Shown here piece after piece: positions 3,896 through 55,570 of a stretch of 61,299 bases of DNA. The position numbers were made by a program, and so were the translations under genes. This DNA comes from Methanobacteriota archaeon (GTDB lineage Archaea > Thermoplasmatota > Poseidoniia > Poseidoniales > Poseidoniaceae). The notes under the pieces were generated by a model that worked only from the letters and a program-made list of their open reading frames with translations, searched no databases and was not told the origin of the DNA. The DNA lies in contig JABGTJ010000012.1 of assembly GCA_018691345.1 (NCBI GenBank), forward strand, positions 1 to 61,299. Direction: 5' to 3'. Position 1 is the first letter of the stretch, and each line of letters opens with the position of its first letter.

Positions 3896-3907
3896 TCTCT
3901 CTTAGGG

Positions 3908-4123: not shown

Positions 4124-4210
4124 CTTTCATCTCTTGCCTGCTTTCTTCGAATCTATGCCGTGCACTTCATGACACGCTCCCTCGGTGATTCGATTCTTCC
4201 AAAGTATCTC

Positions 4211-35456: not shown

Positions 35457-38400
35457 TTATTCTGTTTGATACAGAATCCATTGTCCGGTTTCATTGTCGT
35501 AGTAATGTAGGCTTCCATCAGCAGACTTCGACCAATTTACACCGTTCTCTTCCCATTCTTGAGATTGGGTTTCAATTGGTGGTAATTGCTTTGTTTGCTC
35601 ATTGCTCACGAACGCTTCAGAGGCAGTATCGTTGTGGTTTTCAGCAGCGAATGGTGAACTATTTTCAGGTGATTCTTGATTGTTCCGGACGACCAGTAAT
35701 GCGCCGAGACCACAGACCACCAACAATGCCAAAATGGCATAAGTAAGACCTATGCCTCCGGATTCAGCTTCACGCTCAGATTTATTTGGGTCGTTTGGAT
35801 AGTAGTCATAGGTGTCAGATATTCCATCACCGTCAGAATCAGTCGTTTCGTTTGGGTCAAGAGGGAAGTCGTCTTCAGCGTCGTTGATGTTGTCCATATC
35901 GGTATCCATCTGTGAAAGAGCGCATCCATCATCAAACACGATTGAACTCTCTGGTGTTAATGGACACGTATCGTCAATGTTGGAAACACCATCGTTGTCA
36001 TCGTCCAGTTGGTATCCTGAACATCCATCCAAGTTGATGCTGTGAGATTCATCGGTATCAGGACACAGGTCCTTGTCGTTCTTGATCGAGTCGTTGTCTT
36101 GGTCAAGTTGAGATTCAGCACAACCAACGGAATTGACTTGTTGTCCAACAGGTGTTGCAGCACACAGGTCAACGGTGTTGTCAATCATGTCGTTATCTGC
36201 ATCGAGTTGATTCTCAGCGCAACCAATAGCGTTGGTAATAAGTCCAATTTCAGTATCTGGACAGGCATCATCGTCGTTGTTAATGGCATCACTGTCATCA
36301 TCTCTTTGTGCGTTTGCACATCCGTTTTCATCAACTTCAGAACCGATAACTGTGCTTTGACAGGTATCCATCATGTCGTTGACACCATCAGCGTCAGTAT
36401 CACGTTGTGCCGCTGAACAACCGACGCCATTGACTGGCATCTCAGGTGTTGTTGAAGGGCATTGATCGAGTTGATCGTTGATGGTGTCACCGTCGGTGTC
36501 ACGTTGCGTATCAGCGCAACCAGCATCATCGACCTCTGAGCCAAGTGGTGTGAGCGGGCAAGCATCAAACATATCCATGACCCCATCGTTATCAGCGTCT
36601 TCTTGAGAGCCTGAACAACCGGTTGCATCCACCGTTTCACCGGGGGGAGTGGATGGGCACGCATCCGCACTGTTGGAAACACCATCGAGGTCATCGTCTT
36701 TCTGTTGTTCTGAGCAACCGTTCAAATCGACAGTTTGTCCTGCTGGTGTGTTCAAACACTGGTCGGGTGAAACGCCGTTGGCGTTGTCTCCGTATCCATC
36801 ACCATCAGCATCGAACCATTGAGTTGGTTCGGATGGGAATTTGTCTGCAGCGTTACCGTTTTGGTTGTCTCCGTATCCATCTCCATCCTCATCGGACCAC
36901 TGGGTTCCGTCCATAGGGAAAGCATCAGGGTCGTTACCTGCTTGGTTGTCTCCATAGCCGTCTGAGTCCATGTCAGACCACTGCGTACTGTCGGTAGGGA
37001 ATGCATCTCCGTTGTTACCCGTTGGATTATCGCCGTATCCATCTCCGTCTTGGTCAGTCCATTGTGTGCCATCTGTAGGGAATTCATCGGGAGAGTTTCC
37101 AGTTGGATTGTCTCCATATCCGTCTCCATCTTGATCAGCCCATTGTGTGTTATCTGTCGGGAATTGATCTCCGTTGGTTCCGTTCGGGTTGTCCCCGTAT
37201 CCGTCTCCGTCTTGGTCTGTCCATTGAGTGCTGTCGGCAGGATACTCATCTGCATTATTACCTGACGCGTTGTCACCATAGCCATCACCATCAGAATCGG
37301 ACCATTGCGTCGAGTCGTATGGGAATGCATCGGAATTGTTGCCGTTTTGGTTGTCACCGTATCCATCGGCATCATAGTCAGACCATTGCGATGAATCGTT
37401 CGGGAATGAATCCGGTGAATTGCCAGATGGATTGTCTCCGTAGCCATCACCGTCCATGTCGGAGTATTGGCTTGAATCGTTCGGGAATGCATCTACATCA
37501 TCGTTGTAACCGTCGTTATCTGAATCCTTTTGTGATAATGCACACCCATCGATATCGACGATTGCACCTGCAGCGGAGTTCGGGCAAATGTCGACTTCAT
37601 TTGCTACCGAATCGTTGTCGTCGTCAAATATAAGGTTGAAACATCCACTGTCTCCAATCAGCTGTACGTTCGTGTTGGAATAAAGAAGAGCCTCCGCACA
37701 GTATGCCCCTGATATGTTCGGCGTTGAGTAGGTGAAGGTTGGCAGACTCATGTTTTGTGCAGTTGCGGTAAAGCTCGTCAATGAGGTTGATGCAATGCTT
37801 GCACCCCCTGCATCGGTAATTCGTATGAGTGACTTGTAGGAATCACCTGGTACCAGATCTGCACCTTTCACATCGACGTTATTTGTCGCTGCAGTGCTGC
37901 TTGAGGAGAAACTGTCAACGACCAACGAGGGGAGTTGAGGGATGAATGCATCATCATGAACGCCAATGTATCCATCTGCTGTAGTTAGGTTGATTGCAGA
38001 GTTGGCTGTATAGAGTATACCGACCAAGATATGTTCATCCATGGTTGTAATACCGCTCCAGTTGATGAGCCAACTTTCTGTTGTCGAAGAACTGGTGAAG
38101 TTGATGTATTCTTGGTAAACAGCGGAGGCATTGAGTGCGAGGTTAATGTCATTCGTTGAATTATAATTATTCTCGAAATCCACATCGTTCAACACGAACC
38201 ACCAGAGTGTGTAATCTGTATTGGCGGACAAGTTGGTTGCAGAATGGGAGCCTGAAGTTGAGGACAAAACGGTTGATTGCAGGATTTCGATTGTTGTACA
38301 TTCCGTGTCCAAAGCGAGAACCCCAGTAGCGTCTGAAAGAGCAACATCAGTGCAGTATTCTGATTCAACCATCATTGGGCTTTGTAGGGTCAAGGTCGTG

Positions 38401-39608
38401 TTGTATGCAGTACCGTTTGCGGTGAAGTTCATGGTTGAAGAAGGACTTGTCGAGGTGCTCCCGTTCAGGAAGTTCTGATAGGCTGAAGAGGTCACTGAAT
38501 AGTTTGTACCTGATGTGAGTCCGTTCATTTCTACCGTTGAAGCAGTAAGTGAAGTCGGGGTCACTTCAATTGATTCAATGGTTTGTCCACCTCCAGGTAA
38601 ATCAGTCGTGAGTTCAATGTCATAGATATTTGAAACGGATCCAGAGCCAAATGAAGAATAATGGTACACCATGAAATAGTTCGTTGAATTTGTTGTTGCG
38701 GTGTATTCTGCTGCTTCATTATCGGATGAAGAAGTCATGTAAGCGAAATTATTGAAAGAAAGGGACATTCCTGCAGCATCCTCTAACATCGCATCAATAT
38801 CTCCATTGGCGTGAGTGAATGTCAAATTGAAGTAATAGGTTACACCGTTTATCATTTGTATTTCGAAATAATCCTCATTTGCGACTGATGCCGAATTTAT
38901 TTCAACACTTAGGTCAGTACAATAGACGGGTAAAATTGAGGCTAGGGTTGCAGTTGCAGGAGTGTCGTTTGGTTCTAAGATGTCTGGTGAAGTTGCTGTG
39001 CCGGTACATGGGCTTGGAATGGCGCTTCCATTGCTCCCTCCAGATGAACCATTACCACCAGTCGACGAGGTGCTGAATGTCCACATTTCTAATCCGTATG
39101 AGTCGTAACCATCGTATCTTAGAATCTGAATGTAAATCATACCGCCGTGGGCAGATGATGTAGCGTTCGTTGACACGATTTCAGGGTTGTTACCGAATGA
39201 ACTGTCTATGGTATTCATCGACGAATCGTACATCCACAATTCAAAATCGTTGAAGTAAGTTGTACCGTTTGGAGATGTGTAGGTGGAGTTATAGTTTATT
39301 TCGACGGTTAGTCCTTCATTTGCATTGATTTGCACTGCAAACCAGTCTTCATCATCACCTACGTCTAACTCTCCGAACAATACACCCGTTGCAGACGGGG
39401 CAGTTCCACTCAGATTGATGACTGCTTGACTGCTAACGACGGAAGTCGAATTGTCTGGGAGATCCATGTTGGAGCCCAAATCATTTTGATTAGGCCCGAT
39501 TGCAGAGGCATTGAAAGTAACCGTACTTATGCTCATTAAGAGCAAAACAAGAGCCATCGTCGCGGCGCCAAATCGAACTGTTTTTCCACTACCGTCGTAA
39601 GGGGACAT
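35457..39608 (-). CDS. Large surface protein: signal peptide, two PPC-like domains, Ser/Thr-rich region, 9 x 27-aa and about 9 x 33-aa thrombospondin-type-3 Ca-binding repeats, a C-terminal TM and a cytoplasmic tail
   Basis: 1383 aa ORF with signal-like TMALVLLLMSISTV. DDEDWFAVQINANEGLTVEI and NEDYFEIQMINGVTYYFNL resemble the pre-peptidase C-terminal domain DxDWY.F motif. It also has DGDGYGDN repeats and CPxTPxGxxVDxxGC...DxDxDGVxD repeats. The TM is YAILALLVVCGLGALLVV. Confidence 0.85.
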   Translation of the reverse strand: MSPYDGSGKTVRFGAATMALVLLLMSISTVTFNASAIGPNQNDLGSNMDLPDNSTSVVSSQAVINLSGTAPSATGVLFGELDVGDDEDWFAVQINANEGLTVEINYNSTYTSPNGTTYFNDFELWMYDSSMNTIDSSFGNNPEIVSTNATSSAHGGMIYIQILRYDGYDSYGLEMWTFSTSSTGGNGSSGGSNGSAIPSPCTGTATSPDILEPNDTPATATLASILPVYCTDLSVEINSASVANEDYFEIQMINGVTYYFNLTFTHANGDIDAMLEDAAGMSLSFNNFAYMTSSSDNEAAEYTATTNSTNYFMVYHYSSFGSGSVSNIYDIELTTDLPGGGQTIESIEVTPTSLTASTVEMNGLTSGTNYSVTSSAYQNFLNGSTSTSPSSTMNFTANGTAYNTTLTLQSPMMVESEYCTDVALSDATGVLALDTECTTIEILQSTVLSSTSGSHSATNLSANTDYTLWWFVLNDVDFENNYNSTNDINLALNASAVYQEYINFTSSSTTESWLINWSGITTMDEHILVGILYTANSAINLTTADGYIGVHDDAFIPQLPSLVVDSFSSSSTAATNNVDVKGADLVPGDSYKSLIRITDAGGASIASTSLTSFTATAQNMSLPTFTYSTPNISGAYCAEALLYSNTNVQLIGDSGCFNLIFDDDNDSVANEVDICPNSAAGAIVDIDGCALSQKDSDNDGYNDDVDAFPNDSSQYSDMDGDGYGDNPSGNSPDSFPNDSSQWSDYDADGYGDNQNGNNSDAFPYDSTQWSDSDGDGYGDNASGNNADEYPADSTQWTDQDGDGYGDNPNGTNGDQFPTDNTQWADQDGDGYGDNPTGNSPDEFPTDGTQWTDQDGDGYGDNPTGNNGDAFPTDSTQWSDMDSDGYGDNQAGNDPDAFPMDGTQWSDEDGDGYGDNQNGNAADKFPSEPTQWFDADGDGYGDNANGVSPDQCLNTPAGQTVDLNGCSEQQKDDDLDGVSNSADACPSTPPGETVDATGCSGSQEDADNDGVMDMFDACPLTPLGSEVDDAGCADTQRDTDGDTINDQLDQCPSTTPEMPVNGVGCSAAQRDTDADGVNDMMDTCQSTVIGSEVDENGCANAQRDDDSDAINNDDDACPDTEIGLITNAIGCAENQLDADNDMIDNTVDLCAATPVGQQVNSVGCAESQLDQDNDSIKNDKDLCPDTDESHSINLDGCSGYQLDDDNDGVSNIDDTCPLTPESSIVFDDGCALSQMDTDMDNINDAEDDFPLDPNETTDSDGDGISDTYDYYPNDPNKSEREAESGGIGLTYAILALLVVCGLGALLVVRNNQESPENSSPFAAENHNDTASEAFVSNEQTKQLPPIETQSQEWEENGVNWSKSADGSLHYYDNETGQWILYQTE
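36765..37493 (-). repeat. Nine in-frame tandem 81-nt (27-aa) repeats inside the adhesin gene
   Basis: The repeat unit is D(A/E/K)FPxDx(T/S)QW(S/T)DxDGDGYGDNxxGNxx, from residues 706 to 948. Boundaries were verified codon by codon at 37493 (GAT of DAFPNDSS) and 36764 (GAC of DQCLNT). Confidence 0.9.
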
Positions 39609-44553: not shown

Positions 44554-46338
44554 ATGTGTGGCATTGGAGGAATGTTCGGTCAACCGGATACTTCAGTGGT
44601 TCACCGTATGAATTCACTTCTTTCTCATCGAGGACCAGATGGCAGCGATGTATGGAGCGACGATTCAGTCGCTTTAGGGCACACTCGCCTTGCCATTGTC
44701 GACCTGATTGGGAGTGCTCAACCTCTGTTCGGCCCAGCAGGTGAAGTTCTTGTGGTGAACGGCGAGATCTACAATCATCAATCCTTACGTTCACAACATT
44801 CTCAATACCTTTGGACCACTCAAGGCGATTCTGAATCCATTCTTTCGCTCCTTCATTCTGCTAGAAGCAAATCGAACGGCGTTCTCAGCGCTGGCCAGCA
44901 TGCAAATTGGTTGAATCGGTTGAATGGTATGTATGCCATCGCTCTTTGGGATGCAGGAGCAAAGCAACTCATACTTGCTCGAGACCCGATGGGAATCAAA
45001 CCCCTTGTCCGTACTCAAGTCGATGGTTCCCTACTTTTTGCAAGTGAAACCAAAGCATTACGTGCGCATGAATCTTACGTTCCTGCCATAGATGAACTTG
45101 CCTTAGTGGCCCGGATTGCATGGGAATATCCATTGGATGGAACCACGTTGTTCAAGGATGTAGTTCAAGTTCGACCAGGTACAGTCGAAGTCTGGTGTCT
45201 CGATAACGAGGGTCGGCCTTATCTCCAAGATTCAGCTGTGATTGAACGACAATACGTCGAACCTTCAGCATCATGGAATCCAGATACCAATGCTGAATCG
45301 CTCTTGGAAAGTTTTGTTGAGGGTGTTTCTGAACGCTTGATGGCAGATGTTCCAGTTGGAATTGTTCTTTCCGGCGGACTTGATTCATCTCTGGTTGCCG
45401 CCGTAGCCCATGAGGCAGCAGAACGGGCACAACAGCCTGTTCCAGCGTGTTGGACGGTTGCTGAAAGTGAGGACAATCCAGATTGGATTGCGGCAGAAGA
45501 GGTCGCTTCATCTTTTGATTTAGAACACCATCAGCATATTTTGGAACCTGGCTCTTTCGAGACAAAGTTGCCAGATTTGGCTTGGCATGGAGAGGACCTC
45601 GATGTGACCGTCTTGTTTTTCCAACCACTGTTCCAAAAGATGTCGGAACAAGTGAAAGTTGGTCTGTGCGGACAGGGTGCGGATGAGTTGCATGCGGGTT
45701 ATCCTCGCTACCGAGATTTGAAACAGCACAGCGATTTAATCGATGCACGTTTGGCCTCAATGTCACACCCACTCGCACGTCAAATCGAAAACAAAGCCCT
45801 TCCAATTGGGGAGAACTGGTACACTTCAGACCATACTGGGTCAAGCCACACCGGTTCACTTGATGAGTTCCTTCAATTCGAACTTGACCACGGCCAACTC
45901 TCCAATTTCCAGCTTCGCTTAGTGGATCGACATTCAATGGCTCATTCTCTTGAAGTGCGTGTGCCTTTCCTTTCGTCGTCACATCGTAAAGCCAGTCATC
46001 GATTGCCTATGGATTGGCGTCTTCCCGTAAACGGAGATGAAAAAGCGGCTCTGCGTTCTGCAGCAGGCCTCACCTCCTTGCCTCGGAACATTGTGCACCG
46101 CCCGAAACTGCCTGCTGGAAGAGCGACATCCCCGGGATTAATCGATACCTTACTGAATGATTTCAAACCACAAACGGATGCCATCATTGCTCGGTATCCT
46201 CTTTTGGCAGGGGCGTTGAACACTCAACATGAAATAGCACTTGGATTAGGACTGTTTGAAGCAATGCATATACTTGGAGACGGCCATCGTAAACCTACGG
46301 GCTCAACCTATGATTTGCTTAATGAGGTGATTGGATGA
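44554..46338 (+). CDS. asnB: Asparagine synthase (glutamine-hydrolysing) family amidotransferase
   Basis: N-terminal nucleophile MCGI, GHTRLAIVD, NGEIYN and the PP-loop SGGLDSS. Confidence 0.9.
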   Translation: MCGIGGMFGQPDTSVVHRMNSLLSHRGPDGSDVWSDDSVALGHTRLAIVDLIGSAQPLFGPAGEVLVVNGEIYNHQSLRSQHSQYLWTTQGDSESILSLLHSARSKSNGVLSAGQHANWLNRLNGMYAIALWDAGAKQLILARDPMGIKPLVRTQVDGSLLFASETKALRAHESYVPAIDELALVARIAWEYPLDGTTLFKDVVQVRPGTVEVWCLDNEGRPYLQDSAVIERQYVEPSASWNPDTNAESLLESFVEGVSERLMADVPVGIVLSGGLDSSLVAAVAHEAAERAQQPVPACWTVAESEDNPDWIAAEEVASSFDLEHHQHILEPGSFETKLPDLAWHGEDLDVTVLFFQPLFQKMSEQVKVGLCGQGADELHAGYPRYRDLKQHSDLIDARLASMSHPLARQIENKALPIGENWYTSDHTGSSHTGSLDEFLQFELDHGQLSNFQLRLVDRHSMAHSLEVRVPFLSSSHRKASHRLPMDWRLPVNGDEKAALRSAAGLTSLPRNIVHRPKLPAGRATSPGLIDTLLNDFKPQTDAIIARYPLLAGALNTQHEIALGLGLFEAMHILGDGHRKPTGSTYDLLNEVIG

Positions 46339-47555
46339 CATTTGTTCACAACTTAACTGAACTTCTTGAAAGTAAGCGTGAAGTGATTACAAATTGGATG
46401 GAAGAGAAACGTAAAGCTGTGCCTATCCCGATTTACGGTAGCGTCGACATTCGTGATGCTGGATGGAAAATTGGAGTGGTCGATGCAAACCATTTTCCGG
46501 CAGGTTTCAACAACGTCTCGGAAGAAGATAAACCCGCATTGGCACTACTTTTACACAACCACATCGCCAGAGAATACAACGACTGCAAATGGGTTCATCT
46601 CTATCCTGAGTCGCACACGAGAAATAAGGGGTATGTGGAAAACATTGCTGCTCTAAAGGAACTTTTGTTGCTTGGCGGCTTCAAATGCACCGTTGGTTCA
46701 TTGGATTTCGAAAATCTAGGGCATCTTGTTGGTCTTTCCGGACCACTCAAATTGGATCCAGTTGTTTCAGAAACTATTGACGGAGAAGACATATTGCTGA
46801 TTAACGGCTCGAAACCAGATCTGGTTTTGCTAAACAACGATCTCACGGAGGGTCTGATCGAAGGATTTGGCAACCAAGTCGTATCTCCTCCCCCTTCAAT
46901 GGGTTGGCATCGGCGGCGAAAATCTCAGCACTACGAAGTGCTCAAAGTCTATGTTGACGAAATCTCGCAACTTCTCGGAATCGACCCGTGGTACCTGATG
47001 GCGGATTGGTTTGTCTCAAATGATAAATGTCTCGAAAAAGAAGCATGTAGAAAAGATTTAGCCATTGAAGTCGATGTATTCCTTGATTCAATTCGAACCA
47101 AATATCAATCGCTCGGAATCGAACGTAAACCGGTCGCTTTCATCAAGAACGACCGAGGTACATACGGCCTCGGAATTATGGCGGTTCACAGCGGTGCTGA
47201 ACTGCTTGAACTTTCCAATCGTAAGATGAAGAAACTCATGTATTCCAAAGGTGGAGTAAATGTTGATAATTTTTTGATTCAGGAAGGGATTCCTACTTCA
47301 TTGAAGACCGATGATGGTGCGCCGGTGGAACCCGTTGTTTACTTGGTAGATGGGCAGGCAAGTTCCTGGTTCTATAGAATAAATGCGAAGCGGTCCGACA
47401 TCGAAAATTTGAATTCTCCGAGCGCTACGTTCGAATCGTTTGCTCAATCCGGTCGTCGCTACGGTGAGCATGCCCATGGTTGGCATGCTCTGGTTGCAGA
47501 ACTTTCCATGCTGGCTATGGGCCAAGAATTGCTCTCGTACGGTAGCGCTGAGTGA
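46335..47555 (+). CDS. Glutamate--cysteine ligase-like protein (GshA family of the Acidithiobacillus type), tentative
   Basis: The N-terminal block PIPIYGSVDIRDAGWKIGVVDANHFPAGFNNV matches my recollection of the conserved start of the PF08886/TIGR02049 GshA family. The length is about 400 aa. ATGA overlap with asnB. Confidence 0.5.
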   Translation: MTFVHNLTELLESKREVITNWMEEKRKAVPIPIYGSVDIRDAGWKIGVVDANHFPAGFNNVSEEDKPALALLLHNHIAREYNDCKWVHLYPESHTRNKGYVENIAALKELLLLGGFKCTVGSLDFENLGHLVGLSGPLKLDPVVSETIDGEDILLINGSKPDLVLLNNDLTEGLIEGFGNQVVSPPPSMGWHRRRKSQHYEVLKVYVDEISQLLGIDPWYLMADWFVSNDKCLEKEACRKDLAIEVDVFLDSIRTKYQSLGIERKPVAFIKNDRGTYGLGIMAVHSGAELLELSNRKMKKLMYSKGGVNVDNFLIQEGIPTSLKTDDGAPVEPVVYLVDGQASSWFYRINAKRSDIENLNSPSATFESFAQSGRRYGEHAHGWHALVAELSMLAMGQELLSYGSAE

Positions 47556-48896: not shown

Positions 48897-49661
48897 TTAG
48901 ACGATCATTTCCCTCTTGCACGTAGGGCATTGGATTTTTCCAGAGTACCCTGCAGGGATTTGAAGCGACGCGCTGCAATTTGAACATTGAACCTTGGTTT
49001 TATCGCTGCTCTCAACAGAATCTAAGCCCATGAGGCGCTCGATATTGGCAGGCCATCCTGGCTTAAGCTGTGACATGAAAATTGGAAGAGCCACAAGAGC
49101 CATGCAGATAAAGGAACACATAATCGAAGTAAGAATCATCTGGTCTCCCCACGCTACTGATACTGGGTTGGGATCATCGCCATGGAAAAGAACGCTCATC
49201 ATTCCGGATACAACCAAAACGGCCAATGTAAAGTAAACACCGTTGCGGTATCCTGAGTAAAGTATTCCTCCACCAATGAGGAAACCGATTCCAAGTAGGA
49301 AGGCTGGAATTGAAAGTAACCATGAGGTTTCACTGCCGCCAATGCCAAGAGAGAACACCATGGCCCAAAACAACCTGAAGAAGGCGTAGAGGATGACAAA
49401 TCCGCCAATGGTCTTGGACATCTCCTCTTTTTGGCTCACTTGGATGTATTGGGGCTGTGCATACCCACCCATCGGTTGGGTTTGATACATTGGCATCGGC
49501 ATAGGCTGTGGTGCTGGAGCAGCACGTGTCTGGAAGGGGTTTGATGCTTCGTCGTTCTCCATCAATCGGATGATGACTTCATCTTTATTTCCCGAAACTC
49601 GGAGCCCTCGCTCTCTGCAAAGCGTTTTCAGTTGAACAACGGTCATTCCGGTGTAGTCCAT
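48897..49661 (-). CDS. Membrane protein with an N-terminal SAP motif and a C-terminal zinc ribbon
   Basis: MTVVQLKTLCRERGLRVSGNKDEVIIRLMEN is a canonical SAP helix-extended loop-helix pattern. It is followed by a Pro/Gln/Met-rich linker, four TM helices and CSNC...(15)...CPTC. Confidence 0.65.
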   Translation of the reverse strand: MDYTGMTVVQLKTLCRERGLRVSGNKDEVIIRLMENDEASNPFQTRAAPAPQPMPMPMYQTQPMGGYAQPQYIQVSQKEEMSKTIGGFVILYAFFRLFWAMVFSLGIGGSETSWLLSIPAFLLGIGFLIGGGILYSGYRNGVYFTLAVLVVSGMMSVLFHGDDPNPVSVAWGDQMILTSIMCSFICMALVALPIFMSQLKPGWPANIERLMGLDSVESSDKTKVQCSNCSASLQIPAGYSGKIQCPTCKREMIV

Positions 49662-49711: not shown

Positions 49712-52540
49712 TCAGGCTTCAACTTCAGTAACTGAAATTACTTCAGTAGCCGCCTTTGCTTTCTTTGCTTCGACTTGACGAGCAAGGAAGGACACAACAT
49801 CGAGAATTTCGATGTCTTCGTATCGCTCGTCGCCTTCAAACTTGAGACATTCAAAGTGAGATACACACTTCGGGCAAGAGGTGAGCATTGTATCTGCTCC
49901 AGTTGCTCGAATTTCTTCCATGCGGGTGACACGCAGTGAACGGGCATTCTCGTTGCATGACATCATACTGGATACGCCACAGCACATTGCGTCTTCACCG
50001 TGGTGTTCCATCTCGACGATTTCAACGCCTTCAACACCAGCAATGAGCTCACGAGGTTCTTCATAGATTCCCATTTGTCGTCCAAGTCGGCATGGGTCGT
50101 GGTAGGTGACCGTTGTTTCTTCCTCGGCCTTGAGATTCATATCAAACCCGTTTTCAATGAGGAACTCAGTCGTGTGCATGACCTTGACGCCTTCAAGTTC
50201 GTAATCTCGAGCGAAGGTACGGAAACATTCAGCACATGAGGAGACCAAAGTATCGATACCAGATTGTTCAATCTTCTTTTGATTGTATGCCTTGAGTTTA
50301 TCAAAGACTTCATCGAGGCCTTGCCACTTTTGATCGTGTCCACAGCATTTGAGGAAGTCACGACCAAGGTAGGATACATCCATTTCCATCTCATCAAAGA
50401 GCGTGAATGCAGATGTCGTAGCGTCTCCAAGGTTCATTTCTCCTTCATTGACGTGAGAGAAAACCATCTCCTGGTCAAGGTAATCCACACAGCCAGGGTA
50501 GTAGCCGATGTTTGATGTCAATGGGTAATCTTGTACGGTGACAAAGTCTTCGTCTGCCGCCTCTTCTGCTTCTGCAGCGAGAACTGCTTGGAGAACAGTG
50601 TGTGCAATTTCTGCCTGTGGTCCACCGACAATGAGTGAACGGCGAATATCGACGTATGAATCGTAGTTGACCAGTTGTGGGCAAGCGTTGGTACATGCGG
50701 TACATGTCAAACACGAATACATCGGAACACCGTCGTCTTCATTGTTCCATGAGTTGTAGATGATGTTGAGCTTGTCTCCACCGTTGAACAAGCGAACTGG
50801 GCACGCATCGTCACAAAGGTCACAGCCGTAGCACTTGTTCATCTCAAACTCATATCCACGGCCCATCGAGCGCAAGACGACGAAGACAATGGCACCAAAT
50901 GTAAGACATGGAATGAACATGGCATAGGTGAGTTTAGCATCAAGTGCTTTTGGATTTGTATGGTAGGTCGGGTTTTCAATAGCTGCAAAGTTTGTCCCAC
51001 CTGCTGCCATATCCGTCGAACTGGAGAGGTTCACAGTTGTTCCTGCAAGTGCTGCCGGCGCACTCTCACCCCAAACAAGGAGCGGTTGGAACGTTGCGAT
51101 ACTGAAGGCAGTCTCTGTTTGAATACTGTTGTTTAGAGCAAGAGCACCGCTTACTGCAACTGTGTACTCGTAGGAATAGGTTCCAACCGGTAGTTCCACG
51201 GTTGCTCCAGCACAGTTGTCAAACGTCGAAACGACCTTGCCTTTGTTGTCGGTTACGGTTAACGTTGTTGCTATCATCGATACTGTGGCGATGTCGTTGA
51301 TTTTCCGCTCTGAGGAACGGTACTCACAGGCGAGATCGGTCGTAAGGGTCTCGATGGATTCATGGTGGCCATCAGGGAACAATGAGGTATCTTCAGTGAC
51401 CGTAAATGTTCCAGCATCGGTCCATCCATCTCCGCCGTTAAACGTGGTACTGCCTGCAGCAGCGTTGATGCCGTTCGAAGCGTCTTGATGGCCGTTCGCA
51501 TCGTTGAAATCAATAATGATGTAACGGGCAGGTTGGTAAATCATCCAATCCAACCAAGCGGTTGTAGGAACCGTTTCGGTTTCGCTCCATCCTCGTTCAT
51601 CCGTGAACTCGTTGGTTGCGTGAACGTGAACATCTGTTGGTTGCGTACGCATTGCTTCGAGTTCGGGGTAGTAGTCGTGGGTGAGACCCTTGATGGTTAG
51701 CAAACCACCTTGGTCCCAAAATCCGTCGTCATAGGTGTCCCATGTTGCGACGGTTCCAGCCGTCGAGACCAGTAGAGTCCCAATGAGAATCTGCTTTGCG
51801 TGACTTGGCTTGAATCCTGCACCCCAGGCTTTTACCATCATTCCACGGGCGAGGAAATAGAAACATATCCATGCTAATACTCCTGTCATCACCCAGGGAA
51901 TCGTGTTGAAGGCTTCAGCCACCCATGGTTCCCGTACACCGCACAAAAGATCGCCGTGGCTGTCAAGTTTACAGTAATCAGAGCGGTTCTTTTCGTACAG
52001 TTCCAAGAAGATGTTAATCGAGAAGACGGAGATGAACCAAATGTGTGCCAAGTAGACTGCACCTGCTGTTGCAAACCACGGGTCCTCCACTGGTCGCTTT
52101 TCACGACCGCCAAGGAAAGGTGGTAGTGCAAGGATACTTACTGGAATTCCGGTGAGAGCAGCGCCCCACCATGCAGCGTTCCATGGGAACACAGGTTGGC
52201 CAACGATTTCGCCAATGAAACCAGTAGGTACGGTAAATTGAGGTAGGTATTCTCCCCAACGTAGGTAACCGTATGAGAACAGAACATACCAATCGGGGAA
52301 AACGAATCCTGCTTGTGCATATGGGTCAGCAGCACCGTGAAGCGGCGGAGGAATGAGCCAAGCGTAAAACAGCAATACTGCTGCCATAAACGACAGGAGA
52401 ATTGTGTCACGCAACACTTCATGCGGCCAAAAACCGTGACCCGTACGAGTACGGTTTCGCTTTCCAGCTACCTCTTGCAATTGTTCTTTCTCCTCCATGT
52501 ATGAAGAAGCAACACGTCCGAAATTTTCGATTAGTCCCAT
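49712..52540 (-). CDS. Fusion protein: cytochrome b C-terminal (subunit IV-like) domain, extracytoplasmic insert, TM helix, and an HdrD/GlcF-like 2x[4Fe-4S] plus 2xCCG module
   Basis: The N-terminal roughly 250 aa carry TM helices and the Qo-site motif FPDWYVLFSYGYLR. A hydrophilic insert of about 290 aa follows, then the TM YAMFIPCLTFGAIVFVVL followed by RSMGRG. After that come CYGCDLCDDACP and CLTCTACTNACP, then the CCG motifs LKCCGHD...SSCAEC and MCCGVSS...SCPKC. It is a single uninterrupted 942 aa ORF. Confidence 0.8.
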   Translation of the reverse strand: MGLIENFGRVASSYMEEKEQLQEVAGKRNRTRTGHGFWPHEVLRDTILLSFMAAVLLFYAWLIPPPLHGAADPYAQAGFVFPDWYVLFSYGYLRWGEYLPQFTVPTGFIGEIVGQPVFPWNAAWWGAALTGIPVSILALPPFLGGREKRPVEDPWFATAGAVYLAHIWFISVFSINIFLELYEKNRSDYCKLDSHGDLLCGVREPWVAEAFNTIPWVMTGVLAWICFYFLARGMMVKAWGAGFKPSHAKQILIGTLLVSTAGTVATWDTYDDGFWDQGGLLTIKGLTHDYYPELEAMRTQPTDVHVHATNEFTDERGWSETETVPTTAWLDWMIYQPARYIIIDFNDANGHQDASNGINAAAGSTTFNGGDGWTDAGTFTVTEDTSLFPDGHHESIETLTTDLACEYRSSERKINDIATVSMIATTLTVTDNKGKVVSTFDNCAGATVELPVGTYSYEYTVAVSGALALNNSIQTETAFSIATFQPLLVWGESAPAALAGTTVNLSSSTDMAAGGTNFAAIENPTYHTNPKALDAKLTYAMFIPCLTFGAIVFVVLRSMGRGYEFEMNKCYGCDLCDDACPVRLFNGGDKLNIIYNSWNNEDDGVPMYSCLTCTACTNACPQLVNYDSYVDIRRSLIVGGPQAEIAHTVLQAVLAAEAEEAADEDFVTVQDYPLTSNIGYYPGCVDYLDQEMVFSHVNEGEMNLGDATTSAFTLFDEMEMDVSYLGRDFLKCCGHDQKWQGLDEVFDKLKAYNQKKIEQSGIDTLVSSCAECFRTFARDYELEGVKVMHTTEFLIENGFDMNLKAEEETTVTYHDPCRLGRQMGIYEEPRELIAGVEGVEIVEMEHHGEDAMCCGVSSMMSCNENARSLRVTRMEEIRATGADTMLTSCPKCVSHFECLKFEGDERYEDIEILDVVSFLARQVEAKKAKAATEVISVTEVEA

Positions 52541-52557: not shown

Positions 52558-53424
52558 TCAATGTGGTTCTGCAATGCCTTGTACCCAGACAATGAATAAG
52601 TGAATAATGATTAGAGTTGTAACGATCACTGGCAGAATGAACACGTGAATGAAGTACATTCGAGTGACGGTTCGAGCGGTCAAAGAAGAACCACTGAAAA
52701 GCAGGGTTGCAATATACTTTCCAACCAGTGGGCTCGAGTTTGCCAAGTTGATTCCAATAACGGCTGCACCGTAGGCAAGCGTATCCCAAGGTAAGAGGTA
52801 CCCGGAGTAGCCAAACACGATGGTCAAAGCCATGAGTGCAACACCGATCAACCAGTTGAGTTCACGAGGGTTTCGGTATGCGCCGGTGAAGTAGACACGG
52901 CACATGTGCAGGAACACGCTGGCGACCATGAAGTGAGTGCACCAGTGGTGAACTGCACGGATGATGTAGCCGAACGGAAGTTCAGTCATGATGAATTGCA
53001 TGCTTGCGTATGCCGGAGACGGGTCGCCTTCTCCACCAGGGACGTAGTAGATGCCGAGCACGGTTCCAGTGACGACCAAGATGATGAACGAAAGGAACGA
53101 AATTCCTCCCAAGCAGTAAAGTGGGTACCAGTACCAAATAATGCGAAGCTTGTATTTTTCGGCGTGGGAAAGGGGCATCTGTCGGTGCATGTTGTAGTAT
53201 GCACCTTTCGACATGTTCCAGTAATCTTGAAGTCTGAAACGAGTGTCGAGCCAAGAAAAGACCCAAAGGAACAGACGTTCAGCAAAACCCATCTTTCCAG
53301 TTGATTCTACCGCACGTAGAATCTCACGGCGTGGTGTGTCACTGCTTTCTTGACGAAGCGTCAACGCAACAAGCACCACGACAAAGGCGATGAAAAACCA
53401 GAGAACCCAAAACATTGTTGTCAT
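52558..53424 (-). CDS. Cytochrome b, N-terminal (b6-type) di-haem subunit
   Basis: RAVHHWCTHFMVASVFLHMCRVYFTGAYRNPRELNW...FGYSGYLLPWD. The helix B His pair has 13 residues between the two His, and the helix D pair (HVFILPVIVTTLIIIH) has 14, as in b6-type proteins. Confidence 0.9.
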   Translation of the reverse strand: MTTMFWVLWFFIAFVVVLVALTLRQESSDTPRREILRAVESTGKMGFAERLFLWVFSWLDTRFRLQDYWNMSKGAYYNMHRQMPLSHAEKYKLRIIWYWYPLYCLGGISFLSFIILVVTGTVLGIYYVPGGEGDPSPAYASMQFIMTELPFGYIIRAVHHWCTHFMVASVFLHMCRVYFTGAYRNPRELNWLIGVALMALTIVFGYSGYLLPWDTLAYGAAVIGINLANSSPLVGKYIATLLFSGSSLTARTVTRMYFIHVFILPVIVTTLIIIHLFIVWVQGIAEPH

Positions 53425-53435
53425 TCTTTTTCACC

Positions 53436-54281
53436 TCAGTCACAGTATGTGTACCAGTCGAGATAGTCTACGATGCCCTCGATTGCATCGCCATTGAGTA
53501 CAATGGGGATTATGGGGAGTCCGACAGGAGCGGGACCTCCTGCTTTTCGGATGCCTGCATACTTGAATGTAGAACCGTTTGAACGGTTTCGGTTGGTGTT
53601 CATTTCCAACACCGTAGGGTCGAACCTTGATGAGTGGCAAATGCAGAACAGTTTGGTACCGCCGTCATCTCCTCCACCAGGCGTCCATGAATCCTCAGTG
53701 AACGAGTTCGAGACAAGTTGCCAACCAGGGATGCAGCAAAGGTGAGTGCACCGGCCGAAAATCATGACCAAGTTGTCGGAAGGAAGCAGACGCGGGTCAG
53801 CATCGCTCAAGTCTTCAAAGTGACCGATGGTTTTCCCGGTTTCGTCAACACCTTCAGTAAATTGGAATCGAGCCTTACCGTTTGAAAGTGGGGTCGTAGC
53901 GAATTCGCTGTGGGTTACGTAGGTGACCACAACAGGTACACCGTTCCAAATTCCAGCAGCACCGGATGTTCCAGTGTTGGACTTCGCAGCTTCATCAACG
54001 AAATCTTGCCGCATCATCAGTTGTTCGTGTTTGGCACCGTACCACGCTTCGTCTTCACGGCCTTTTGCCCAAAACTTCACGCCGAGTTCACCTTCGTTAC
54101 TGCCGCCAGGGGGCAAGAGAATGGATGCAAATCCGAGGACACCAAGTGAAGCGGCTAGGACGCCAGTGGCGGTGTTGAATCCGTAGCGAAGAAATTGACG
54201 TCGATTAATCGACGAAGATGTCATTGCCGAACCTGTCTCGCCTGCGAAAGGCGCTGGTTTGAGGTCGTATTCACGTGCCAT
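53436..54281 (-). CDS. Rieske [2Fe-2S] protein with a twin-arginine signal
   Basis: Tat motif SINRRQFLRYG. Cluster boxes CTHLCC and CICHSS (CxH...CxxH). Confidence 0.9.
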   Translation of the reverse strand: MAREYDLKPAPFAGETGSAMTSSSINRRQFLRYGFNTATGVLAASLGVLGFASILLPPGGSNEGELGVKFWAKGREDEAWYGAKHEQLMMRQDFVDEAAKSNTGTSGAAGIWNGVPVVVTYVTHSEFATTPLSNGKARFQFTEGVDETGKTIGHFEDLSDADPRLLPSDNLVMIFGRCTHLCCIPGWQLVSNSFTEDSWTPGGGDDGGTKLFCICHSSRFDPTVLEMNTNRNRSNGSTFKYAGIRKAGGPAPVGLPIIPIVLNGDAIEGIVDYLDWYTYCD

Positions 54282-54287: not shown

Positions 54288-54734
54288 TCACCACTTGTAT
54301 TCCTTCCAGTCTTTCTGGTGTTCGGGAACGAACTTGTTCATTCCGTGTTTGACGATGATTGTGTCTGGCAAGACGAACTTGAGGTAGGCCATGCCCAACA
54401 AGCAAAGTGTGACCAGCATCATGGCAACGTGGTACGACAACTGTTGTTGGTCCCATCCTTTGGCCAGGCCGTAAATCATGGAAAAGACCCAGTAACAGGA
54501 CCAGAAGATTCCCCATACGAAGAACATCATAATCAGATTGGATGCGCCAGAGGGTGCAAGAGATGCACTGACGATTGTGCCTGACTCGGCGAGGTTGAAT
54601 ACGCCGTGGTCAATCGCTGACTGCATTTGGTCTTCTGTCAAAGAGGCGTCTTCCAATGCATTCCGTGCATCTTCAACACTGACTTTTCCGCTGGCAACCT
54701 TGCGTAGTAGGGTCGTGATTGTATCGTCCATCAT
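54288..54734 (-). CDS. Small membrane protein of the Rieske/cyt b operon
   Basis: 148 aa with an N-terminal soluble helical segment (LLRKVASGKVSVEDARNAL, SHOCT-like) and 2-3 TM helices. ATGA overlap with the upstream gene. Confidence 0.5.
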   Translation of the reverse strand: MMDDTITTLLRKVASGKVSVEDARNALEDASLTEDQMQSAIDHGVFNLAESGTIVSASLAPSGASNLIMMFFVWGIFWSCYWVFSMIYGLAKGWDQQQLSYHVAMMLVTLCLLGMAYLKFVLPDTIIVKHGMNKFVPEHQKDWKEYKW

Positions 54735-55570
54735 TGGTCACCTCTTCGCATGAGTTTGTATCGCAACCGGAGTTGATTGGTTCGTCCGCTGTAGGATGTC
54801 GAGAAACTGTATCGCAGCATTAATCCAGCGAATATAATCACGAGAATAACTGCGCCAAACCCGAGTAGACCGAGCCAGTGCGCACGAAGTTCGGCGCCCA
54901 TGTGTTCGAGGTCTACGCCGTGGTGTGATGGTTCAGGTGGGCTGACGTTTCCGTCACCGGCGAAAAGAGTACGAGTGCCCAGTGCCGTTGTTGAATCGCT
55001 TCCTTCTTGGAGGGTGAAGAGCAGTTGATTCCACTTGTCTTCCTGTCCGCCAGCGTTGTTGAGTTGGTCTCCGTTCACTGCGTTTCCAGTGATCCAGAAG
55101 TTGACCACGCCAGAGTCTGCGGCCGGTGCCTGCCATGTGATGACCCACAAGCGCTCAGCTTCGTCAGCAGTCGCTTGAGTGTGCGTCAATGTCGTGACAT
55201 CATCGTCCCAGTTTTGAACGCCTTCACCGCCAAGTACGCCGTCGGTCGTGCGAATTGCGAATCCAGCGGTGTAGACGCCGGTTGCAGGTGGGCCGCCGAT
55301 AATTTGGAGCGTCATGGTGTATGTTTCGCCAGCAATCCAGCCGTACGGTACATCGTCGAGGATAATTTGGACGGAGTTATCTGCGGCTTCGTTGTGGCAA
55401 AGGCAACCCTCTTTTGCAACGTCATCGATGGTTTCTCCGGCGTTGTCTTGGGAGCCTCCAACGCCGCTGTGAAGCGATGTCGCAAAGCCTGGGACCAGGA
55501 GTAAAATCGCTAGCATGAGCACTACTCCTGTGCGTGTGGAAAACGAGTTCCTTAGCATAGCCTCACCCAT
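54731..55570 (-). CDS. Secreted, C-terminally membrane-anchored protein, first gene of the Rieske/cyt b operon (candidate extracytoplasmic redox partner)
   Basis: Signal-like N-terminus (GVVLMLAILLLVPGFA), a beta-rich domain of about 200 aa with a GCLCHN motif, and a C-terminal TM (WLGLLGFGAVILVIIFAGLML) followed by a basic tail. Confidence 0.55.
   Translation of the reverse strand: MGEAMLRNSFSTRTGVVLMLAILLLVPGFATSLHSGVGGSQDNAGETIDDVAKEGCLCHNEAADNSVQIILDDVPYGWIAGETYTMTLQIIGGPPATGVYTAGFAIRTTDGVLGGEGVQNWDDDVTTLTHTQATADEAERLWVITWQAPAADSGVVNFWITGNAVNGDQLNNAGGQEDKWNQLLFTLQEGSDSTTALGTRTLFAGDGNVSPPEPSHHGVDLEHMGAELRAHWLGLLGFGAVILVIIFAGLMLRYSFSTSYSGRTNQLRLRYKLMRRGDQ

Follow-up and report, generated by a model that had tools for sequence, protein, structure and literature searches.

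In the b6f and the Firmicute-type b6c complexes, cytochrome b is split between b6 and subunit IV, which are encoded behind the Rieske gene. Both have four haem-ligating histidines, a CxGG cysteine for haem c_n, a P[E/D]WY motif in subunit IV, and helices E, F and G. All of these features are shared by a gene cluster of a Poseidoniaceae (Marine Group II, MGII) archaeon that we analysed within a stretch of 61,299 nucleotides (the window). In contrast to b6f and b6c, the Poseidoniales subunit IV has gained three transmembrane (TM) helices, a probable extracellular domain and a 380 aa, putatively cytoplasmic FeS/CCG module, its Qo motif reads PDWY, the operon is without cytochrome f/c1, and the upstream gene is reeler-like.

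A cytoplasmic HdrD-type module (two cubane clusters and two CCG domains) on a membrane di-haem cytochrome b is also the arrangement of HdrDE and DsrMK/HmeCD. With these systems, the Poseidoniales protein further shares the completeness of both CCG motifs, and its nearest unfused homologues are HdrD-like, from Methanosarcinales and Methanoperedens. However, the Poseidoniales module is covalently linked and its partner is a Rieske-type b6/subunit IV rather than a NarI-type HdrE/DsrM; the host is described as an aerobic heterotroph (PMC6336850), with no CoM/CoB metabolism reported in the MGII genome literature. In EtfD (Rv0338c family)/EMO, one polypeptide joins TM helices to an FeS/CCG module, as here and in a similar order, and among solved structures the FeS module is closest to mycobacterial EtfD, its top PDB match in both sequence and fold. 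These proteins are electron wires from the donor ETF via haem b to menaquinone (PMC13083937, PMC8593149, bioRxiv 10.64898/2026.08.18.745454), and their distal cluster varies (PMC13083937; bioRxiv 10.64898/2026.08.18.745454). The TM parts are non-homologous: that of EtfD is NarI-like and haem-binding, whereas the Poseidoniales subunit IV is haem-free with the haems on a separate subunit. The Poseidoniales distal site is C-C-G where EtfD has C-T-G (alignment), a degenerate site with a linear 3Fe-4S or variant cluster, and there is no ETF linkage.

Cytochromes b with FeS attachments have been described by Kao and Hunte 2014 (PMC4122944), whose PDWF-FeS clade is fused to 4Fe-4S/MvhD or ferredoxin/flavin domains. 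This clade, and the anammox Rieske/cytochrome b complexes with NAD(P)-oxidoreductase subunits, share with our locus a bc-type cytochrome b plus cytoplasmic FeS/MvhD/flavin modules, and the idea of a whole cytochrome b, Qo site included, as a reusable module. The clade's gene cluster is without a Rieske gene and no CCG has been reported for it, whereas the Poseidoniales have a Rieske protein and the HdrD-type module on subunit IV. Diamond et al. 2022 (PMC9038741) found hdrD-like and rnfB-like genes near complex III in Ca. Angelarchaeales and proposed ferredoxin entry; these genes are of the same family and context as our loci L121, L126 and L134-L139. That the FeS part is fused to subunit IV is not mentioned there, nor are the insert-bearing full form and the wider distribution. 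A first-pass annotation of this DNA had held that no such complex was described, which stands for the subunit IV fusion, found in neither paper, but not for FeS-fused cytochrome b as such, since the PDWF clade was already known.

The gene (49712-52540, minus strand) is a 942 aa ATG open reading frame without stops (ORF check of the window), and is best explained as subunit IV (the cytochrome b C-terminal half) of a Rieske/cytochrome b complex. Its domains run from the cytochrome b C-terminal/subunit IV part through two extra TM helices, a beta-sandwich and a TM helix to two CxxCxxCxxxCP and two CCG motifs. The features of the locus are as follows.

44554-48267, plus strand: AsnB-like amidotransferase, archaeal GshA and a 219 aa membrane protein (Pfam PF00733, PF08886)
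48264-48896, plus strand: 110 aa 2x[4Fe-4S] ferredoxin ('RnfB-like') and a 96 aa two-TM protein (Pfam Fer4_21, E 2.6e-14)
49766-50500, minus strand: HdrB-like module, two complete CCG domains (Pfam, phmmer, Foldseek)
50621-50872, minus strand: HdrC-like dicluster domain, C570-C580 and C610-C620 (Pfam Fer4_8/9/10)
50873-50953, minus strand: final TM helix, aa ~530-556, then RSMGRG (top hydropathy peak, 2.15)
50954-51724, minus strand: acidic, variable beta-sandwich insert, aa ~273-529 (~260 aa; alignment, AF2, Foldseek)
51725-51985, minus strand: predicted p-side loop (C190/C200 invariant), then a hairpin of two extra TM helices (AF2, hydropathy)
51986-52540, minus strand: subunit IV/cytochrome b C-terminal domain, aa 1-185 (family profile against PDB, PF00032 in relatives, hydropathy peaks)
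52558-53424, minus strand: cytochrome b6, 288 aa, with an extra N-terminal TM helix (PF00033, E 8e-42)
53436-54281, minus strand: divergent Rieske iron-sulfur protein, 281 aa (TIGR01416, E 4e-10)
54288-54734, minus strand: 148 aa membrane protein, weakly DUF7318-like (co-transcribed, 4 nt overlap with the upstream gene)
54731-55570, minus strand: 279 aa protein with a reeler/Ig-like beta-sandwich (NCBIfam choice-of-anchor V, E 2.5e-21)

At least 23 independent contigs from separate samples carry the exact protein, and it has more than 100 full-length relatives (915-942 aa, 59-92% identity), which excludes an assembly or frameshift artefact. The first-pass annotation had raised that worry, now answered by these sequences and by the fusion in the best 80 GTDB loci. 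It had also read a single uninterrupted 942 aa frame behind Rieske and b6 genes, made up of a subunit IV-like part, an insert and an HdrD/GlcF-like FeS-CCG part. The stop-free frame, the motifs with their HMM and profile matches, and the haem and FeS motifs, short gaps and synteny of the neighbours bear this reading out, with its segment coordinates correct to within about 30 aa.

In Pfam, aa 1-290 have no match, even at E<=10. A profile of 18 family N-termini, searched against the PDB, does match cytochrome b (E 4e-15) and b6f subunit IV (E 3.9e-10, residues 24-141 of 160), and PF00032 is matched above its cutoff by 27 of 36 distant relatives and by the Angelarchaeales orthologue. The Cytochrom_B_C HMM check proposed earlier therefore gave no Pfam match for the fusion itself, and homology came from the family profile and transitive evidence. 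The domain comprises an n-side N-terminus, helix E, the ef loop with PDWY, helix F, an n-side GGREKRP loop and helix G. The Qo motif PDWY (aa 82-85, nt 52286-52297, FPDWYVLFSYGYLR), noted in the first-pass annotation as a PEWY variant, is unchanged in 106/106 fused loci. Across the family there is no conserved haem-ligand His pair in the N-terminal helices of the fusion.

By its homology to subunit IV, the fusion should start on the n side, to which the F-G loop returns, with PDWY exposed on the p side. Beyond the p-side loop, whose Cys columns (C190/C200) are kept in 32/32 aligned sequences, lie the two extra TM helices (aa ~206-242 and 245-265; AF2 pLDDT 72-85), a Poseidoniales-specific hairpin that is missing in short relatives. 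In the latter, helices E, F, G and one more lead directly into Fer4, and the final TM helix of the long form aligns with this pre-Fer4, fourth helix (helix H position). Because the Poseidoniales form adds an even number of helices (two), modelled as a hairpin, the FeS-CCG module is predicted to be cytoplasmic (n side), and the beta-sandwich insert is probably extracellular, a placement in keeping with its variable, acidic sequence and conserved cysteines; the fusion has no signal for export of the FeS domain. The same topology had been proposed from a helix count, now backed by subunit IV homology, the short relatives and the hairpin, and the RSMGRG noted after a TM helix does directly follow one at aa ~537-556. 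By AF2, the insert is all-beta (pLDDT 73-91), while the monomer model is poor for the subunit IV and Fer4 parts (pLDDT 25-60). The insert has 36 D/E vs 9 K/R, a conserved Cys pair (C405/C443), indels and a mean column identity of 0.53, compared with 0.85-0.95 for its flanks; Pfam gives nothing, even at E<=10, and Foldseek only weak GOLD/jelly-roll-like matches.

Conservation within the fusion peaks in its FeS and CCG regions (column identity 0.85-0.95). The dicluster domain (Pfam Fer4, aa 566-622) begins 13 residues past the TM helix, a tether that is the same in every family member; each of its CxxCxxCxxxC motifs (aa 570 and aa 610) ends in P, and 8/8 of its cysteines are conserved in 32/32 sequences (column identity 0.95). 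The CCG domains (Pfam CCG x2, E 3e-22) have the ligand sets C684..C732-C733-G..C769xxC772 and C817..C853-C854-G..C889xxC892, with the CCG motifs at aa 732 (LKCCGHD) and aa 853 (MCCGVSS). All of these cysteines are conserved (32/32), and the two domains should bind non-cubane clusters. Two CxxCxxCxxxCP and two CX(n)CCGX(n)CXXC make up the HdrD signature, so that the HdrD/GlcF layout of two ferredoxin and two CCG motifs noticed earlier is upheld by motif positions and by Pfam CCG and Fer4. EtfD (9ojn) is the only PDB phmmer match to the module (E 4e-23) and the best by Foldseek (E 2.8e-11; LutA TM 0.71, HdrB TM 0.54-0.61). NCBIfam gives no equivalog-level Hdr/Tfr match, the best being TfrB, at 111 bits where the cutoff is 385. 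All 80 Poseidoniales loci have two complete CCG motifs. In other relatives, the distal (first) CCG is degenerate (CVG in L125 and P0152, CTG in P0159) and MGIII has a single CCG; the proximal CCG is retained in all.

Poseidoniales of both MGIIa and MGIIb have conserved the full-length form, and the fusion is intact in the best 80 GTDB loci. Insert-less fusions (543-590 aa) are found in MGIII, soil Thermoplasmata, Geothermarchaeales and others, as are split forms that encode subunit IV with 2x[4Fe-4S] and, after it, an independent CCG protein. The survey suggested by the first-pass annotation thus found a fusion common to the order with short and split kin beyond it; the architecture is modular and predates Poseidoniales. 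Among unfused relatives, the closest (40-49% identity) are HdrD-like and come from Methanoperedens, ANME-2 and Methanosarcinaceae, where their genes stand beside hdrC-hdrB-hdrA. In every locus with enough flank (MGIIa, MGIIb, MGIII, Thermoplasmata, Geothermarchaeales) the order is Rieske-b6-fusion, and the gene after the fusion is always a cytoplasmic electron-transfer or dehydrogenase module: an RnfB-like ferredoxin in MGII, MGIII and Thermoplasmata, an FrhB/FdhB-like protein in L081, HdrA-like plus MvhD in L125, and HdrC-HdrB-HdrA-MvhD in L092.

In the Rieske-b6-fusion run, the intergenic gaps are 17 and 11 nt. Aligned to PDB b6 (E 8e-44), the b6 protein has haem ligands His159/173/260/275, and its Cys104 in YCLGG (the haem c_n motif) falls on b6 Cys35. 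A simple pattern scan found no CxGG haem c_n motif in MGIII and Geothermarchaeales b6 genes; the n-side acceptor is thus not uniform across the family, which counts against a wire function of the module. The Rieske protein has a Tat motif (RRQFL) and boxes CTHLCC and CICHSS, both of which align to bc1 ISP chains. Further upstream, the gene for the 148 aa protein is syntenic throughout Poseidoniales, and L125 has a clear DUF7318 protein in the same slot. The 279 aa protein, also syntenic, has a signal/TM segment, a beta-sandwich (AF2 and Foldseek reeler domain, E 6e-5), a C-terminal TM anchor with a conserved tail, and an invariant GCLCHN (alignment); it is a candidate extracytoplasmic subunit or electron acceptor. 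No operon protein contains CxxCH, as would a c-type cytochrome f/c1, and no hdrE (NarI-type cytochrome b) lies in the neighbourhood, where the partner is the cytochrome b6/subunit IV. The RnfB-like ferredoxin, probably the redox partner of the fusion and, like the 96 aa two-TM protein, its conserved neighbour, is encoded 0.1-2.5 kb from it, inverted in MGIIa and on the same strand directly downstream in MGIIb, MGIII and Thermoplasmata. Here it shares an operon with the genes for GshA (gamma-glutamylcysteine ligase), the AsnB-like amidotransferase and the 219 aa membrane protein, a linkage that is kept in MGIIa and many MGIIb loci and is absent in MGIII, Thermoplasmata and Geothermarchaeales. 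The tie of a gamma-glutamylcysteine ligase operon to the cluster in Poseidoniales counts against a wire for electron input.

By analogy with HdrDE, DsrMK and EtfD/EMO, all of which mount this module on a membrane cytochrome b, the FeS module may be an n-side electron wire, most likely for input to the b haems and Qi, a reading to which we give about an even chance. Helices E-G and the PDWY loop would, with cytochrome b6 and the Rieske protein, form the Qo site at which quinol is oxidised. [quoted passage not shown] These four clusters could wire a cytoplasmic partner to the n-side haems (b_H/c_n) and Qi. Low-potential electrons would enter from a cytoplasmic FeS/flavin partner (here the conserved 2x[4Fe-4S] RnfB-like ferredoxin, in other lineages FrhB-like or HdrA/MvhD modules) and reduce quinone at Qi to quinol, which a normal Q cycle would then oxidise at Qo. 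The degenerate distal and retained proximal CCG in relatives, the pattern of EtfD/EMO, argue for a wire over a catalytic site. The intact haem c_n motif and b_H ligands suggest a functional Qi, and the unvarying class of downstream genes points to input. The conserved gene order and the strong conservation of the FeS/CCG regions argue that the fusion is integral to the complex. The organism has only this one reported cytochrome b/Rieske pair (Tully 2019, PMC6336850), so that output, were it obligatory, would presumably divert half of the respiratory electrons. Counting against input, transfer from ferredoxin to quinone without coupling wastes a large free-energy drop. The earlier idea that an n-side FeS module could exchange electrons with the b-haem chain is in general supported, as is the Rieske/b6 operon context that it described.

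The module might alternatively act as an HdrDE-like enzyme, its two non-cubane sites reducing a low-molecular-weight disulfide or oxidising the thiol, probably one derived from gamma-glutamylcysteine, with electrons passing to or from the b haems. For reduction, quinol oxidation at Qo would drive the low-potential electron through the membrane onto the disulfide, as a redox loop; for oxidation, thiols would feed Qi. The completeness of both CCG domains in all Poseidoniales copies, with CX(n)CCGX(n)CXXC as in HdrB/HdrD, is like catalytic Hdr, unlike EtfD, and leaves room for disulfide-directed catalysis. The nearest unfused relatives adjoin hdrC-hdrB-hdrA, as the L092 fusion itself adjoins hdrC-hdrB-hdrA-mvhD, and the GshA/AsnB-like operon, shared with the ferredoxin in MGIIa, has stayed linked despite inversions. 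However, a degenerate distal CCG, as in relatives of the same context, would abolish Hdr-type catalysis, the gshA linkage, confined as it is, could be general synteny within one order, no equivalog-level Hdr/Tfr match was found, and NADPH-dependent reductases normally keep cell thiols reduced. We regard this as unlikely, if the most credible of the alternatives. The thiol/disulfide or organic-acid couple of the first-pass annotation is thus one option, but the partner genes and EtfD/EMO point at least as strongly to protein donors. Such a donor could be ETF, reduced by acyl-CoA and amino-acid dehydrogenases and docking on the CCG domains to pass electrons through the clusters to b haems and quinone. 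M. smegmatis EtfD is the sole PDB sequence match and best fold match, EtfD/EMO are proven ETF-to-menaquinone wires, and MGII are predicted to degrade protein and fatty acids (PMC6336850). This reading is distinctly improbable given that no etf genes occur in the 61 kb window or any examined neighbourhood, where the linked genes are ferredoxin-like, FrhB-like or HdrA/MvhD; moreover, module-bearing soil Thermoplasmata also have FixABCX (PMC9038741), and the Poseidoniales distal CCG is intact, unlike the C-T-G of EtfD.

Electrons could also leave by the module, a Qo electron being driven uphill via b_L, b_H and the FeS wire to ferredoxin or NAD(P)+ at the expense of the Rieske branch. An intact Qo motif and Rieske protein, a PDWY-type motif as signature of low-potential quinone (PMC4122944), and partner modules (HdrA, MvhD, FrhB-like, ferredoxin) that are reversible low-potential carriers would suit such a bifurcation, which has been proposed as a hypothesis for anammox Rieske/cytochrome b complexes (PMC12954380). 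Yet if the only complex III worked this way, its stoichiometry would commit half of the respiratory flux to the acceptor, and the electron would be moving against the membrane potential; b6 keeps its haem c_n/Qi features, and there is no experimental precedent. We consider it poorly probable. Least probable of all is that the subunit IV helices simply tether an autonomous GlpC/LutA/SdhE-type CCG/FeS oxidoreductase that reduces quinone without b-haem exchange. GlpC, LutA and archaeal SdhE indeed need no haem partner to act at the membrane (bioRxiv 10.64898/2026.08.18.745454), and Foldseek gives TM 0.71 to LutA. But the anchor here is a fully conserved Qo-forming subunit IV, its gene always follows Rieske and b6, the cubane domain follows the last helix at 13 residues throughout the family, and no GlcD/GlpA/LutB-type flavoprotein dehydrogenase is adjacent.

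Taken more broadly, there is a slim chance, a little below that of the thiol/disulfide enzyme, that the complex works either by quinol-driven Qo bifurcation, exporting b-haem electrons through the HdrD-type wire, or by the reverse route from ferredoxin to haem c_n to quinone. In the bifurcating version, the Rieske branch would feed the oxidase and the b-haem branch would make reduced ferredoxin or thiols in the cytoplasm. If true, the reverse version would be a hard-wired form of the long-postulated b6f route of cyclic electron flow, and either direction would make this a Rieske/cytochrome b complex with an n side open to cytoplasmic redox carriers. Abundant marine archaea have a complex III membrane subunit with a built-in, probably cytoplasmic iron-sulfur chain, and the complex may, unlike textbook complexes, exchange electrons directly with cytoplasmic carriers.

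The fusion gene was read as a single open reading frame with an ATG start, and it follows the Rieske and cytochrome b6 genes with short gaps.

Genes of the Rieske/cytochrome b core in the window
53436..54281: Rieske protein, ending 11 nt before the cytochrome b6 gene
52558..53424 (-): cytochrome b6, 288 aa rather than ~215 aa
49712..52540 (-): subunit IV-HdrD-type fusion, 942 aa, starting 17 nt downstream of the cytochrome b6 gene

This reading bore out the uninterrupted frame of the first-pass annotation, and all of the motifs it had named were found: the Qo motif (PDWY, aa 82-85), CxxCxxCxxxCP at aa 570 and 610, CCG at aa 732 and 853, and RSMGRG after the strongest hydrophobic peak (aa 537-556). 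An assembly or frameshift artefact is ruled out, because the identical protein is present on at least 23 contigs from different samples, there are more than 100 full-length relatives (915-942 aa, 59-92% identity; named Poseidoniaceae, Thalassarchaeaceae or Poseidoniales MAG proteins), and the fusion is kept in all of the best 80 loci from GTDB representative genomes. The closest of these loci, in a Ca. Poseidoniaceae MAG, is 98% identical.

To identify the N-terminal domain, a family profile was required, since Pfam and single-sequence phmmer were insufficient. At E ≤ 10, Pfam gave no match to aa 1-290 or to the insert. Searching the PDB by phmmer with the N-terminal part gave only four matches (E ~0.3); each was a cytochrome b or a b6f subunit IV, and the alignments fell on helix E and PEWY. 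When aa 1-260 were run by phmmer exhaustively against 1.8 billion representatives, 106 relatives were returned; 27 of 36 distant relatives (30-40% identity) matched Pfam Cytochrom_B_C, and nearly all 36 have PDWY. A profile of 18 trimmed N-termini, run against solved structures in the PDB, matched cytochrome b with E 4e-15 (helices E-F) and cyanobacterial subunit IV with E 3.9e-10 (residues 24-141 of 160). Given these matches of the distant relatives and of the profile, the homology is secure: judged by sequence, the N-terminal domain is a subunit IV.

The partner proteins were compared in the same way with known complexes. Cytochrome b6 matches cyanobacterial b6 with E 8e-44, all four haem histidines align, and Cys104 of its YCLGG aligns with the cysteine of the CxGG haem c_n motif. 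It also carries an extra N-terminal TM helix and a ~70 aa extension ahead of helix A. The divergent Rieske protein has no match in Pfam; it bears a Tat motif (RRQFL), and its cluster boxes, CTHLCC and CICHSS, both align to bc1 iron-sulfur proteins.

Pfam placed two CCG domains (E 3e-22) and a 4Fe-4S dicluster domain in the C-terminal module, in agreement with the HdrD/GlcF-like layout proposed from the sequence. The three-segment assignment of the first-pass annotation stands, for the FeS segments by Pfam and for the cytochrome b segment by the family profile where Pfam itself was blank. The CX(n)CCGX(n)CXXC pattern is complete in each CCG domain (C684/C732/C733/C769/C772 and C817/C853/C854/C889/C892), with each ligand cysteine conserved in 32/32 sequences. 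NCBIfam models gave only partial matches below threshold, led by TfrB (111 bits against a cutoff of 385) and followed by LdhH, GlpC, DsrK and GlcF. The sole PDB sequence match of the module was M. smegmatis EtfD (9ojn, E 4e-23), and Foldseek on the model also ranked EtfD first (2.8e-11), then LutA (TM 0.71) and HdrB chains (TM 0.54-0.61). In the EtfD alignment, C-C-G of the window stands opposite C-T-G; the distal CCG is CVG or CTG in some relatives.

The orientation of the fusion was derived from homology and from shorter relatives. By homology to subunit IV, the N-terminus and the F-G loop (GGREKRP) would lie on the n (cytoplasmic) side and PDWY on the p side. Relatives without the insert (543-590 aa) have helices E, F and G and one more helix, with the first FeS motif 13 residues on; a single extra helix after G would make the FeS module cytoplasmic, as with helix H. 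The additional elements of Poseidoniales sit between helix G and the last helix: a p-side loop in which the cysteines C190 and C200 are invariant, a two-helix hairpin (aa ~206-242 and 245-265, AF2 pLDDT 72-85) and an inserted domain of ~260 aa. As the number of added helices is even, the FeS module would stay inside and the inserted domain outside, which agrees with the helix count of the first-pass annotation. Conservation is lowest in the insert (column identity 0.53 versus 0.85-0.95), which has indels that differ between the Poseidoniales subgroups MGIIa and MGIIb, is strongly acidic (36 D/E versus 9 K/R), contains a conserved Cys pair and was modelled confidently as a β-sandwich, all of which fits an extracellular domain. 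Its structural neighbours are generic only, with weak GOLD/jelly-roll/tail-fibre-like matches in Foldseek. The AlphaFold2 monomer of the full fusion (32-sequence alignment, mean pLDDT 60.6) was unusable for the subunit IV and Fer4 parts.

We surveyed other genomes for the same architecture, querying a second genome scan with the short fusions, followed by ORF and motif parsing and Pfam scans. Beyond the 80 GTDB loci, forms without the insert or split into two genes were found in the related marine group MGIII, soil Thermoplasmata and Geothermarchaeales. The constant family core is a Rieske protein, b6, and a subunit IV with at least the two cubane motifs.

Forms of the fusion and the genes that follow it
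Poseidoniales: full fusion with insert; then a 2x[4Fe-4S] ferredoxin (110 aa) and a 96 aa two-TM protein
Geothermarchaeales locus L081: full fusion without insert; then an FrhB/FdhB-family (F420-type) FeS flavoprotein gene (3683..4798) that overlaps the fusion end and has an N-terminal dicluster domain
Uncultured archaeon, locus L092 (4808..14955): multihaem cytochrome c, Rieske, b6, full fusion without insert, HdrC, HdrB, HdrA (1010 aa), MvhD, multihaem cytochrome c
Loci L082 and L117: full fusion without insert; contigs end within ~1 kb and 26 nt of the gene
Thermoplasmata MAG, locus L125 (4043..13020): DUF7318 protein, cupredoxin-Big_7-cytochrome b6 fusion (879 aa), full fusion without insert (distal CCG is CVG), HdrA-like flavoprotein, MvhD
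MGIII loci L131 and L132: subunit IV with 2x[4Fe-4S] (359-378 aa) and a separate CCG protein with one intact CCG only; then an RnfB-like polyferredoxin
Soil Thermoplasmata loci L121, L126, L134 and L139, probably the Angelarchaeales of Diamond et al.: subunit IV with 2x[4Fe-4S] (436-449 aa) and a separate CCG protein with both motifs; then a Fer4 protein

L092 has a complete HdrABC/MvhD bifurcation module in genetic linkage with the Rieske/cytochrome b complex, and a locus of this type (Rieske-b6-fusion-HdrCBA-MvhD) may represent an intermediate in evolution. Among unfused relatives of the module, the closest (40-49% identity) are HdrD-like genes from Methanoperedens, ANME-2 and Methanosarcinaceae. 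We dropped the assignment of these as the HdrD of HdrDE, as they lie immediately upstream of hdrC-hdrB-hdrA with no adjoining hdrE.

In MGIIb the ferredoxin and 96 aa genes follow the core directly and share its strand; in MGIIa the pair is inverted. The window carries the ferredoxin gene in fourth place within a compact + strand operon, in the order AsnB-like amidotransferase, archaeal GshA (γ-glutamylcysteine ligase), 219 aa membrane protein, ferredoxin, 96 aa protein.

Further genes of the window
19689..28682 (+): giant ORF, 2997 aa, with a transglutaminase core
35457..39608 (-): giant ORF, 1383 aa, with a faint TSP_3 repeat match
44554..47555 (+): AsnB-like glutamine amidotransferase (594 aa), overlapping by 4 nt an archaeal-type GshA (406 aa)
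48897..49661 (-): 254 aa protein, with a SAP domain at the N-terminus, a zinc ribbon at the C-terminus and four predicted TM segments; its gene separates the fusion from the ferredoxin operon and is present in only some MGIIa loci
54731..55570 (-): 279 aa 'choice-of-anchor V' protein, heading the Rieske/cytochrome b operon

The AsnB/GshA pair adjoins the Rieske/cytochrome b cluster in nearly all MGIIa and many MGIIb loci and is absent beside it in the MGIII and Thermoplasmata loci. The gene overlap, and the shared operon with a membrane protein and ferredoxin, suggest that Poseidoniales make a γ-Glu-Cys-derived, possibly amidated, low-molecular-weight thiol. The 279 aa protein has a reeler/Ig-like β-sandwich, an invariant G-C-L-C-H-N near the mature N-terminus, a C-terminal TM helix and an unusually conserved cytoplasmic tail; its gene occupies the place of a plastocyanin-like gene in soil Thermoplasmata. 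Tried as a cupredoxin or cytochrome f analogue, it gave a reeler-like fold, with cytochrome f only at rank 39 (E 0.012), and it has no CxxCH. It could serve as the equivalent of c1/f in the complex, with a metal or cofactor bound at a site so far unrecognised. The two giant ORFs are probably surface proteins. Other products of the window are a 2-oxoacid dehydrogenase complex, a peroxiredoxin and a class I ribonucleotide reductase, consistent with an aerobic organism.

To our knowledge, where a module of this kind sits on a membrane cytochrome b (HdrDE, DsrMK, EtfD/EMO), its clusters always link a cytoplasmic reaction to the haems, and by this analogy we infer that the clusters of the fusion connect such a reaction to the b haems. 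The complex has a functional-looking Qo site (PDWY and Rieske), the b-haem and c_n ligands, a strongly conserved module of four clusters that subunit IV would hold at its n face, and a lineage-variable cytoplasmic electron-transfer module encoded just after the fusion. We favour input, in which electrons would enter via the HdrD-type module into b_H/c_n and Qi, because the genes appended to the fusion encode modules of dehydrogenase or ferredoxin type, relatives show a degenerate distal cluster site, as do the wire-type EtfD/EMO, the Qi-side features are kept, and no complex III other than this one is reported in MGII (PMC6336850), so that an obligatory output would drain half of the respiratory electrons. 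The same suggestion was made for soil Thermoplasmata from gene proximity alone (Diamond et al. 2022, PMC9038741).

The main rival to electron input is a thiol/disulfide role of the fusion. It is supported by the completeness of both Hdr-type CCG motifs in every Poseidoniales copy, by the Hdr genes that neighbour relatives and by the linkage to gshA. Entry of electrons from ETF into the complex is less supported; the closest solved relative of the module is EtfD, and ETF, terminal oxidase and cupredoxin genes were sought in the window and none were found. Also less supported are a bifurcation-driven output, to which the cost of draining a sole complex III applies, and simple anchoring of the module.

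The fusion belongs to the cytochrome b C-terminal/subunit IV family and to the CCG/HdrD-like superfamily. It falls outside HdrDE, as there is no HdrE, and outside EtfD/EMO, as it has no NarI-like haem domain and its distal CCG is intact. EtfD and EMO (Syntrophus) are membrane cytochromes b fused to an FeS/CCG module, in which two cubane clusters and two unusual ones act as a wire that takes electrons from ETF to menaquinone, with a variable distal and a conserved proximal cluster site (PMC13083937; bioRxiv 10.64898/2026.08.18.745454). The first-pass annotation knew of no described Rieske/cytochrome b complex with such a fusion. None was found in the literature searched, including that on MGII/Poseidoniales, where the fusion, its insert-bearing form and its distribution are undescribed; the claim is tempered by three partial precedents: a PDWF-FeS clade of cytochromes b fused to FeS/MvhD or flavin domains, without a Rieske protein (PMC4122944), anammox Rieske/cytochrome b complexes with NAD(P) oxidoreductase subunits (PMC12954380), and hdrD-like and rnfB-like genes noted in passing beside complex III (PMC9038741). 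One MGII genome paper records cytochrome b and a Rieske protein, with canonical complex III lacking, and nothing more (PMC6336850); the other main one leaves cytochromes unmentioned (PMC6461757).

The fusion gene shows a Poseidoniales complex with a b6-type core and a subunit IV to which an HdrD-type module of four clusters, the proposed wire, is attached on the predicted cytoplasmic side. Among planktonic archaea of ocean surface waters, Poseidoniales (Marine Group II) are described as the most abundant. If the wire talks to the b haems, their complex III would also be a dehydrogenase (or reductase) for cytoplasmic carriers, the modelling of respiratory chains and of ferredoxin or thiol balance would change, and an HdrD module of methane-metabolising archaea would be linked to aerobic respiration. 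It would also offer a natural, stable system to test direct n-side electron injection into a Q-cycle enzyme, a matter of continuing debate for cyclic electron flow through b6f. The fusion, conserved in a group that is abundant worldwide, bears on the feeding of a Q-cycle enzyme from the n side by cytoplasmic carriers.
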